Origin: a virus
Taxonomy: Duplodnaviria > Caudoviricetes
Direction: 5' to 3' (one strand)
Virus record (IMG/VR): IMGVR_UViG_2974767555_000001
Location: 11,688-75,687 of that record
Length of the DNA stretch: 64,000 bases
Under the pieces are notes generated by a model, which was not told the DNA's origin, searched no databases, and saw only the letters and a list, made by a program, of their open reading frames with translations. Of this stretch, positions 27,734 to 30,587 are shown in pieces. Both the position numbers and the translations under genes were made by a program. Within the stretch, counting starts at the first letter, position 1; each line of letters opens with the position of its first letter.

Positions 27734-29113
27734 TCATGTCTGGTACCTGCCTTCGCTGCTGCCGCTGGGGCACATGGTTTCCGAGATTGTCCCCCAGTAC
27801 CTGCTGGGTCGGAGCAGGCGCGGGTTGCCAACCAGGTAGGCCAGCGCGGCCTCGTCACCCTCGGTCTGGTCGATCTGGCACGCATGGCGCGCGTAGTAGA
27901 TCAGCTCCCGAGGCGTCCGGTCGCGGTACTCGAACTCAGGGTCGGCCTCCAACACGGCCAACACCAGCTGCTCATCAGGTGTGAACCAGTCGGTGATGGC
28001 ACGGGCGACCGGGGGACTGAATCCGGTCAGGGCCAACACGATGGCCATAGCGGCCCCCATCATCCCCAACCGGCTTATACCCTCGTCAGTCTTAGCGGCT
28101 TGCATCGCGGCCCGTACCTCGCTGTCATCGACGGCGGTATAGCGCTCGGTCACGGCGACGTTGGCGTGCCCCAGTAGGGTCTGCACGGCGCGCAGGTTCC
28201 TCGTGCCGCGATAGGCCCGGGTCGCGAACCGGTGACGGAGGGTGTGCATCGTGTACCCGGCAGGCATTGCGGCAGCGACCAGCTTGCCCACCCAGCGGGG
28301 GGAGAGGTGACCGTCCTCGTCACCAGGGAACAGCCACCCCTCGACGCCGTAGGCGGCCATCTCTGGGGTGTGGCCCGGGGCACCAAGGGCGATAAGGTCG
28401 GCCAGGTCGTCAGTGATGGGGATGACCCGCTCCCGGTTTCCCTTCCCGTGTACCAGCAGCTGCGGGCCGTCAAACCCCTCGCGTAGGTCACGGGTGTGGA
28501 CCTGGGCGACCTCGGCCCGACGTAGGCCCGCCTCTGCCGCTAGACGCATCATCAGCGCCACCCGGGGGCCAGCGGCCTGGAGGGCCTGACGCCACACCCG
28601 ATCTGGGGCCGGTCGGGGGACTGGCCGGTCGGGCTTGACCGGGGGCAGGTCGGTGGCCGGGTTGGTCGTTAGGTGACCTGCCTTGTGTGCCCAACCGAAG
28701 AAACTTACCGCGCTGTTGCGGTATCCACGGCGCGTCTCGATGCGCCACTGGGTCTGCCCAGCAAACCACCGTCGGAGCTTTTCGGCAGTCAAATGGTTGG
28801 GGTCGGAGCAAATCGACCGGGCCATTCGGCAGACATGTGACAGGCGTGTAGCTACGGTGCTTTCCGGGCGACCGGCTGCGCGCAATTCCAATGTGTAGCC
28901 GTCAATTAACGGCTGCCAGTGGGGCGGTACTGGTGACGGAGATGGGCCGCTTTTTTGACCCGAGCGGGTTGACACCTCAGCAAGATTAGGCACCACCGTA
29001 AGTACGGTTTTGGGTGAGCCGTGATCGTTATGTGATCGTGACCTGCCTATGCGTTTCGTTGGGCCGCAACTGGGTACGGCCATGCCTTCCGGAAGGGGTT
29101 GGGCGGCAGTCAC
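27734..29113 (-). CDS. int: Tyrosine integrase, in frame with a 119-aa signal-peptide/DUF732-like C-terminal extension
   Basis: Catalytic GLRRAE, HGKG, HTLRH, LGH and TERY; GTG start overlaps the repressor stop (GTGA); true start could be downstream. Confidence 0.92.
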   Translation of the reverse strand: MTAAQPLPEGMAVPSCGPTKRIGRSRSHNDHGSPKTVLTVVPNLAEVSTRSGQKSGPSPSPVPPHWQPLIDGYTLELRAAGRPESTVATRLSHVCRMARSICSDPNHLTAEKLRRWFAGQTQWRIETRRGYRNSAVSFFGWAHKAGHLTTNPATDLPPVKPDRPVPRPAPDRVWRQALQAAGPRVALMMRLAAEAGLRRAEVAQVHTRDLREGFDGPQLLVHGKGNRERVIPITDDLADLIALGAPGHTPEMAAYGVEGWLFPGDEDGHLSPRWVGKLVAAAMPAGYTMHTLRHRFATRAYRGTRNLRAVQTLLGHANVAVTERYTAVDDSEVRAAMQAAKTDEGISRLGMMGAAMAIVLALTGFSPPVARAITDWFTPDEQLVLAVLEADPEFEYRDRTPRELIYYARHACQIDQTEGDEAALAYLVGNPRLLRPSRYWGTISETMCPSGSSEGRYQT

Positions 29114-29490
29114 GCAACCGCTCCTCGTGTTTGCTGGTTGTCACCATCAACCAAGCGCAAGTGGTGTTGAGTCCCAAACCAGAAGGTTGGGGGTTCGAAT
29201 CCCTCCGGGCGCACTTTATTTGCCGTGTCGTCGTCGGGTGATGGTGGAACGAACTCCCCGATACCGGATTCCAGCCAGCTGACTGGCACCCCACACGCCA
29301 ACGCCCAGGCGTTCAGTACGACCTTGCGTGGCCGTGTCACGCCCCGTTCAGCATTCGAGATGACGTGACGGGTAACACCCATCGCGTCGGCCAGCTCCTG
29401 CTGACTTAGACCCGCCTCCTCGCGGGCGATCCACAAGCGGTACTTCAGTCGGTTTGGGGGGATGAACCCCTTTTCGTATGCACTAGTCAT
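29110..29490 (-). CDS. Immunity repressor (XRE HTH) containing attP
   Basis: LWIAREEAGLSQQELADAMGVTRHVISNAERG HTH; tRNA-derived VRPEGFEPPTF segment; ends ...RGAVA. Confidence 0.9.
   Translation of the reverse strand: MTSAYEKGFIPPNRLKYRLWIAREEAGLSQQELADAMGVTRHVISNAERGVTRPRKVVLNAWALACGVPVSWLESGIGEFVPPSPDDDTANKVRPEGFEPPTFWFGTQHHLRLVDGDNQQTRGAVA
29180..29214 (+). other. attP common core (3' half of a tRNA, probably tRNA-Arg(ACG))
   Basis: CAGAAGGTTGGGGGTTCGAATCCCTCCGGGCGCAC: T arm plus 3' acceptor strand, with no 5' half nearby; adjacent to int. Confidence 0.85.
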
Positions 29491-29497
29491 GTCGCGG

Positions 29498-29527
29498 ATC
29501 GTAACGCGCATGCGCCGCGCTTAGCAA
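29498..29527 (-). promoter_or_regulatory. Putative leaderless repressor promoter
   Basis: Minus strand: TTGCTA-N18-TACGAT, 7 nt before ATG 29490; palindrome GCGCATGCGC in the spacer. Confidence 0.6.
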
Positions 29528-29676
29528 TTGGCGGCTCAAAACAATTAAGTGCCGACAGCGGCACGCTCAGCAAACACGCGCAAAATCAACACCAAACGTA
29601 AAAAGGGCCATGGGTTACAAACCCACGGCCCTTTACTTTGTCCACATCAGCCGCCAAAAGCACTGGAATGTCACAC

Positions 29677-29714: not shown

Positions 29715-30152
29715 ATGACCCGCACCACAGCAAAGGACCGACCAGTGATCAGGCCCCCGTACGAGCACCAGGGATGGCGTAACCCGTTGACGCCCCGGGC
29801 CAAGGACCGTCTGGCCGTCGTCTTGCTCCTGACCACCTGCCTGTTCCTGGGCGCGGTCTGGCACCTAGCGGGTCACGCCCACGCAGCACCCGCTGCCGTG
29901 GTCACCGTCGAGATGTCGTGGACGGGGTGCGCTGACCTGACGGCACCCGACGCCCACGACCGCACGCAGGTCACCAGCGCGGTGATCTGTGAACCCCCTG
30001 CCGCAACCACGTACCCGGTCGCCAACGGCGAGATGTACGGCGCGGCCCTGTTCTCACCCGGCGAGCTTGTCGTCTGCCGGGTGTCGGTCGGTGGCCAAGA
30101 GGTCGCCTTCCAGGCCGCGCTTGGCGCGGTCAATTGCCTGGCCCGCATGTAG
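29715..30152 (+). CDS. Secreted/membrane hypothetical protein
   Basis: Hydrophobic segment ending AHA-AP (signal peptidase site); four Cys in the beta-rich mature part. Confidence 0.7.
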   Translation: MTRTTAKDRPVIRPPYEHQGWRNPLTPRAKDRLAVVLLLTTCLFLGAVWHLAGHAHAAPAAVVTVEMSWTGCADLTAPDAHDRTQVTSAVICEPPAATTYPVANGEMYGAALFSPGELVVCRVSVGGQEVAFQAALGAVNCLARM

Positions 30153-30194: not shown

Positions 30195-30587
30195 ATGAAC
30201 AAGAAGGCCGTTGCTGCCGTCGTCGCCGTCCCGACCACGTTGGTCCTGATCGCCGGGACCGGCCTGGCCATCAGCGCCACCCGGGGACCGCAGCACAGCG
30301 ATGCCGACAAGGCGTTCCTGTCGCTGCTCAATCACGAGGGCATCGACGTCAGCAGCGAGGACCGCGCCGACCAGATGATCGACAAGGGGCACAGCGTGTG
30401 CCAGTCGCTCGACAACGGGGCCACCCTGCTGCAGCTGGGTATGGGCGCGATCGCCGACCCGTCACTGACGATGGAGCAGCACGGGACCGTGATCATCGCG
30501 GGGGTGTCATCGTACTGCCCCGAGCATCTGGAATCCATTGCCGCACAGGCCAAGCAGCTGTCCTCACTGGGCGGGACCAACGCCTGA
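30195..30587 (+). CDS. DUF732-like secreted protein
   Basis: RBS AAGGAG; N-terminal TM; DKAFLSLL...GHSVC...YCPEH. Confidence 0.8.
   Translation: MNKKAVAAVVAVPTTLVLIAGTGLAISATRGPQHSDADKAFLSLLNHEGIDVSSEDRADQMIDKGHSVCQSLDNGATLLQLGMGAIADPSLTMEQHGTVIIAGVSSYCPEHLESIAAQAKQLSSLGGTNA

Follow-up and report, generated by a model that had tools for sequence, protein, structure and literature searches.

A BPs-type phage integrase carries a conserved in-frame tail with a signal-peptide-like segment and a distantly DUF732-like domain

The integrase gene analysed here lies in a stretch of 64,000 nucleotides (hereafter the window) from a 75,687-bp virus genome in IMG/VR. It reads in frame past the point at which most related integrases stop and adds a tail with a signal-peptide-like segment and a small two-Cys domain. 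Our comparisons indicate that this fusion is real, conserved and evolved, and is neither a sequencing error nor a frameshift site. As the best explanation we consider it probable that the tail is a selected part of an integration-dependent-immunity int gene, that it originated by fusion with a DUF732 gene, and that it is inserted through Sec and alters the availability of Int.

The whole fused int ORF occupies 27734..29113 on the minus strand, with 459 codons plus a stop (27736-27734), counted from a GTG that overlaps the repressor stop. Its tyrosine-integrase core, residues 66-340 (28094..28918, minus strand), ends in VRAAMQAA. The Pfam family Phage_integrase (PF00589) matched residues 182-331 (E=1e-19, 71.4 bits against a cut-off of 27.1), PHROG integrase profiles matched residues 84-342 (phrog_1, E=3e-38; phrog_216, E=1e-34), and R198/R199, K224, H290, R293, H316 and Y325 were invariant in a 16-sequence alignment (A2). 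The dN/dS of the core was 0.07 against Mycobacterium phage Nadezda, the nearest deposited relative (96% nucleotide identity over the int region). Just as an earlier sequence-only reading had described, the frame then runs on as ...VRAAMQAA-KTDEGISRLG-MMGAAMAIVLALTGFSPPVARA-ITDW... for 119 residues beyond residue 340, and comprises three parts, all on the minus strand. The first is the polar/basic linker KTDEGISRLG (28064..28093), delimited from the sequence and the Nadezda comparison. The second is the signal-peptide-like segment (27998..28063), recognised from its 19-residue Kyte-Doolittle average (KD19) and from homologous tails, in which the hydrophobic stretch is followed by a Pro/Ser c-region and an A-R-A end. 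The third is a helical domain of ~87 residues, distantly DUF732-like (27737..27997), supported by the tail alignment A3, AF2, hhalign, ESM and dN/dS. The two Cys codons of the tail lie at 27880-27878 and 27772-27770 (residues 412 and 448), and the C-terminus, ...SSEGRYQT, has no Ala-rich tag. A GC-rich hairpin at 27620..27648 (minus strand), 3' of the fused ORF and between convergent genes, is the sole terminator-like site; it is likely the terminator of the rep-int transcript, and no such site was found between the Int core and the tail.

The N-terminal end of the ORF is less certain. Residues 1-65 (28919-29113, minus strand) are poorly conserved, with a dN/dS of ~1.1 against Nadezda (2 synonymous and 6 non-synonymous changes). 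Because the homologues mostly begin just ahead of an (S/T)GPxPxPxP motif, the GTG at 28975-28973 may be the real int start. The public gene call, P0001 (363 aa, from Met97), shares the stop of the fused ORF and drops conserved residues. The annotation thus calls one ORF correctly, leaves the extra domain unremarked and has probably placed the start wrongly.

For the continuous frame, the sequence-only reading had offered three explanations, namely a 1-nt deletion or assembly error, a programmed shift, and an evolved fusion, of which only the evolved fusion fits the comparative data. Nadezda, an isolate from Russia whose genome was determined independently, shows the uninterrupted frame as well (462 codons); in its annotation, too, the 'integrase' runs to the stop of the window ORF. 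In the linker the two phages differ by one 3-nt and one 6-nt indel (+3 and +6 in Nadezda), both frame-preserving. The TAA noted earlier at 28094-28092, one base out of frame after QAA (GCC GCT AAG), is indeed present in the window, whereas Nadezda has GCG GCC AAG in place of GCT AAG and no out-of-frame TAA, so that this stop is a local accident. Beyond Nadezda, metagenomic relatives whose cores are 50-57% identical and whose tails are 33-37% identical to those of the window carry the same layout in frame with Int. The full layout of basic residues, hydrophobic stretch, A-x-A and two-Cys domain is present at loci L002/L003, L004, L005 and L006; L008 has the hydrophobic stretch, the A-x-A and the first Cys and then diverges, and L007 ends at the contig end. 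Alignment with homologous integrases therefore places the same in-frame fusion in Nadezda and in five diverged relatives. In L008 (3871-4293), the tail of P0010 tracks its relatives through DYLGDGTGIGA and then departs from P0124 (L007), a sign that one of these metagenomic contigs may contain a frameshift or an assembly error.

The tail also behaves as a coding sequence. Read in the Int frame, its 357 nt have a GC3 of 0.84, the two remaining sense frames are interrupted by 4 and 5 stops, and its hydrophobic 19-mer is rare (equalled by only 0.5% of the 19-mers in likely genes of the window), so the open frame is not a product of chance. Against Nadezda, dN/dS was 0.33 for the whole tail and 0.41 for the two-Cys domain. 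When the tail was searched by tblastn against 50,697 phage records, Nadezda was the sole match, and an exhaustive phmmer search of 1.8 billion representatives gave two real matches, P0121 and P0124, both integrase C-termini; two further phmmer matches were spurious, being repetitive proteins. The tail had no match among the PHROGs, and a word-indexed search with the tail alone returned no protein besides the window's own. We discarded an antisense ORF at 27695..28177 (plus strand) as a mirror-frame artefact, since stops interrupt its frame in L005 and L006.

The genetic context of int is that of a known immunity system. A 133-aa HTH repressor gene (rep; 29110..29511, minus strand; HTH_3, E=1e-12; phrog_2328, E=1.5e-34) is adjacent to int and co-oriented with it, its stop overlapping the first possible int start (GTGA); locus L002 also shows this rep-int overlap. 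The attP common core, the 3' end of a tRNA, lies inside the repressor ORF at 29172..29216 (plus strand) as a 44-45-nt match (95.6%) to the core in gene 33 of BPs, Halo and dozens of Cluster G phages, and Rep ends ...TRGAVA, 3' of this core, which would fit such a system by sequence. With rep next to int and the attP core inside rep, this is a BPs-type integration-dependent immunity cassette; operon layout, attP position and attP core are all shared with BPs. Besides Nadezda, the nucleotide similarity extended to Bipper and Cracklewink in the flank alone. Between rep and the first rightward gene we observed a perfect inverted repeat with a 15-bp stem and a 3-nt loop (29602-29634), a possible operator or bidirectional terminator; a palindrome at the corresponding place has been reported for Weirdo19 (PMC7194413). 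The first rightward gene past rep (29715-30152, plus strand) encodes 145 aa without a Pfam match, annotated 'membrane protein' in Nadezda, and is no obvious Cro-like HTH protein, unlike its counterpart in BPs.

To place the tail within the integrase family, we assembled a set of 160 loci with related integrases, taken from genomes in IMG/VR and GTDB, and cut the proteins at the end of the core profile. Among 140 distinct integrases, 94 had fewer than 10 residues past the AAMxAA motif, mostly ending -A, -AA, -VA or -SA, and 24 had 10-35 extra residues; a tail with a hydrophobic 19-mer and without the two-Cys domain was found in 15, and the full tail in 7. On a FastTree of the cores, every long tail belonged to a single clade (38 rows, support 89), which includes the BPs-like (L032, L034), Weirdo19 (L050) and Bipper (L010) integrases, with the two-Cys form scattered over several of its branches. 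The phylogeny indicates that the tail layout is derived from integrases ending at AAMxAA(A), and the fusion event is old. The earlier suggestion that Int ended at the AA motif thus holds for the wider family, most members of which stop 1-4 residues past it, and fails for the BPs clade. There the protein continues past the motif, so QAA is not the degron of this clade, and any tag would be expected to sit at the new end of the protein.

The integrases of integration-dependent immunity described for Clusters G, N, P and I are of the BPs gp32 type (Broussard et al. 2013, via PMC3694055, PMC4557955, PMC9262239). The window protein belongs to the same integrase family, with 49-57% identity to the Int proteins of Peeb, Paito and Weirdo19. 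BPs-like Int has 64 aa past AAMxAA, and this extension aligns with the first part of the long tails through a homologous Arg-rich linker, hydrophobic stretch and GI(S/T)D motif; the BPs-like tails look like truncated versions, or a remnant, of the long-tail module. In contrast, the window tail goes on past A-x-A into the ~87-aa two-Cys domain. The core closest to that of the window is that of Bipper (74%). The Bipper tail of 74 aa combines a hydrophobic stretch with an EQ..VLA.L helix and a Cys segment at the C-terminus, and resembles an internally deleted version of the window tail. A canonical C-terminal tag is not universal in these proteins, since BPs and several Mab prophage integrases lack one (PMC8092301). 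In the literature searched, the scope of which did not take in the 2013 Mol Cell paper, there was no mention of a hydrophobic stretch or an extra domain of these integrases.

The two-Cys domain is weakly DUF732-like, on sequence evidence that is weak but consistent. The 'DUF732-like' label proposed earlier stands on synteny and weak profile signals, while the window tail itself has no match to Pfam DUF732 (PF05305, gathering score 22.4 bits). One of six homologous tails matched this family at E=0.031. We then aligned A3 by hhalign with 34 DUF732 sequences, drawn from three Mycobacterium genomes plus int-adjacent copies; this gave P=0.0012 with a probability of only 19% over 74 columns, in which the early helix and the two Cys lined up; among 200 controls with shuffled columns, one scored as high. 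An ESM language-model search of the tail placed DUF732 clusters on top (score 0.84, 175 shared features). Twelve columns of A3 are invariant, both Cys among them. Prediction by AF2 on the six-sequence tail alignment was mediocre (pLDDT 63 overall; 65-82 for the greater part of the domain, residues 31-90) and gave four helices after A-x-A, the count expected for DUF732. With this model, a Foldseek search of the PDB returned nothing with E below 2 and a shape search of the ESM Atlas returned TM values of 0.45 or less, no fold match, while a sequence search found no solved DUF732 structure. DUF732 secreted proteins and lipoproteins of mycobacteria and their phages consist of a signal peptide and then a four-helix domain of ~70-90 aa, an arrangement that the tail appears to share. 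The early helix with D/E-x-x-(F/L)-(L/V), the Cys that closes helix 2 and the Cys near the C-terminus align in register between the two; the tail differs in being fused in frame to a cytoplasmic enzyme, whereas DUF732 stands alone.

The strongest support for the DUF732 link came from synteny. A bona fide DUF732 gene lies 3' of int on the same strand at 21 loci of about eight lineages, with gaps ranging from adjacent to ~1 kb. At L022, L023, L026-L031 and L045, a DUF732 lipoprotein gene begins with an ATG placed 8 nt from the int stop codon, counted from that codon's first base. The DUF732 gene is directly adjacent to the second integrase of L014 and about 120 nt 3' of int in L098; in L104 its frame opens about 100 nt past the int stop, and in L057/L125, L066, L058/L109 and L115 it lies 260-1000 nt 3' of int. 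Since Mycobacterium genomes hold only 9-27 DUF732 matches each, this arrangement is not due to chance. The tail probably arose by fusion of int to the DUF732 gene, for a secreted protein or lipoprotein, found 3' of it in many related prophages, a fusion with a downstream neighbour being the simplest history. In the L022 group (IMG/VR prophage-like contigs), the lipoprotein has a lipobox (LAGC/LAAC) and its reading frame contains no stop as far upstream as the end of the Int core, so that one frameshift would fuse both genes. The window has in addition a signal-peptide-bearing DUF732 protein of its own (30195-30587, plus strand; PF05305, 56.6 bits) in the rightward operon opposite rep, and the phage therefore has one standalone and one fused DUF732-like copy flanking its immunity region. 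A word search with the standalone protein found no homologue, only itself. Some phage DUF732 copies are toxic when overexpressed (PMC13732428, PMC7474061).

With regard to the signal-peptide-like segment, the hydrophobic 19-mer of the window reached a Kyte-Doolittle value of 1.66, the only such peak in the protein (the Int core maximum is 0.85). The value barely exceeds the usual cut-off of 1.6; the homologous tails gave 1.77-2.37. Upstream Arg/Lys, a hydrophobic stretch of 15-19 aa, a polar c-region and an A-x-A followed by V or I were found in 7 of 7 tails that include the segment. A Tat signal was considered and rejected, as the twin arginines seen in a few tails (L004, Bipper, Weirdo19) are missing from that of the window.

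In the explanation that we favour, the fused chain would be made as one protein from the repressor promoter, and its internal signal sequence would insert through Sec, so that Int would stay in the cytoplasm and the two-Cys domain would reach the outside, where a disulfide could form. Signal peptidase would probably cleave after A-x-A and release the domain; the conserved A-x-A suggests cleavage rather than a permanent anchor. Int would be left membrane-bound and without a C-terminal Ala-Ala tag, and the resulting change in its stability or availability would change the frequency of lysogeny. Because Int abundance sets lysogeny frequency in systems of this type (PMC3694055, PMC9262239), the tail should tune the lysis-lysogeny switch. 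One arrangement speaks against a captured signal peptide: in prophages of the L022/L023 type, Int itself ends in a hydrophobic tail and the DUF732 gene 3' of it separately encodes a signal peptide, so the hydrophobic stretch need not have been captured from the DUF732 partner.

The chief rival reading, which we judge rather unlikely, is that the tail is a cytosolic regulatory extension whose hydrophobic helix packs on Int or on a neighbouring protomer, or serves host proteases as a degron or aggregation signal, the two-Cys domain staying inside. BPs-type integrases with the homologous hydrophobic stretch are under proteolytic control through the C-terminus (PMC3694055, PMC4557955). A single C-terminal substitution stabilises Int in BPs (PMC3694055), which would most simply mean that a cytoplasmic protease sees the C-terminus, an ill fit with a stably exported tail. 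Many extended tails also still end -AA, -VA or -PA, as expected of a cytoplasmic tag, and the hydrophobicity of the window segment is borderline. However, the basic n-region, the hydrophobic stretch and the A-x-A c-region have been kept together in seven tails that are no more than 33-37% identical, and the two invariant Cys, together with the resemblance and synteny to secreted DUF732 proteins, point to export.

It is also conceivable, and in our view quite improbable, that the one frame yields two products, the fused Int and a secreted DUF732-like protein started at ATG 28063 or TTG 28069. The sequence-only reading had raised a start of this kind, and the ATG at 28063 (ATG ATG) and the -10-like TATAAG at 28079-28074 are both in the window. 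In both the window and Nadezda the hydrophobic stretch begins precisely at the ATG ATG, and standalone DUF732 genes follow int in relatives. Neither element proved to be conserved, however. The TATAAG position reads GTGTCAG... in Nadezda, a consensus scan found no promoter-like site, and in none of the five distant homologues does an ATG, GTG or TTG lie between AAMxAA and the hydrophobic stretch. A signal peptide started here would have no charged n-region, and no Shine-Dalgarno sequence lies at the proper spacing. Given the missing start codons in the homologues, the lack of a promoter-like site and a terminator-like hairpin only past the fused stop, separate translation of the tail is possible in this phage and is not a conserved feature of the family.

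The programmed shift takes the form of a -1 slip at GCC GCT AAG that would give a short Int with an ssrA-like -QAA end beside the long form. This is highly improbable, as CAA GCC GCT AAG contains no X XXY YYZ slippery site or heptamer, no conserved downstream structure was seen, and the stop is absent from Nadezda and from all other relatives compared (L002, L004, L005, L006 and L008). That the frame results from faulty sequencing or assembly, or from a 1-nt deletion of recent date, with a real Int ending ...QAA* and a separate downstream gene, is scarcely credible: the TAA right after QAA would suit it, as would the fact that most of the distant family members end at the AA motif, but the Nadezda frame stays intact across its two indels and the tails of the five diverged relatives are fused likewise.

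Regulators such as ToxR/CadC or anti-sigma factors are bitopic, with a cytoplasmic domain, one membrane helix and a small outside domain. The predicted topology of the exported form of the fused integrase would resemble that of these regulators, with a DNA-acting domain inside, one hydrophobic segment and a small Cys-bearing domain outside; this is an analogy of design only, and no sequence relationship links the tail to ToxR/CadC or the anti-sigma factors. We know of no recombinase of such a bitopic design.

Taken together, we describe what appears to be a BPs-type integrase that absorbed an exported DUF732-like module, a variant of a known system. How often lysogeny follows infection in integration-dependent immunity depends on how much stable integrase is present, and a conserved hydrophobic, export-like tail would bring the enzyme under an additional level of control or to a different place in the cell; the literature searched describes neither. 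BPs-like phages, engineered lytic derivatives of which are in therapeutic use, carry a truncated form of the tail. A broader idea, which we regard as doubtful, is that a clade of mycobacteriophage integrases, to which the BPs-like ones belong, consists of membrane-inserted recombinases, in which the outside DUF732-like domain or a leftover anchor links Int stability to the state of the envelope (redox, signal peptidase, or a membrane or tail-specific protease), with the DUF732 genes next to int belonging to the same circuit. If this were true, the integration-dependent lysis-lysogeny switch would gain an envelope input. The uncharacterised DUF732 family is in any case tied to int genes, repeatedly as the gene lying 3' of them and in this phage through a fusion, which gives it a testable setting.
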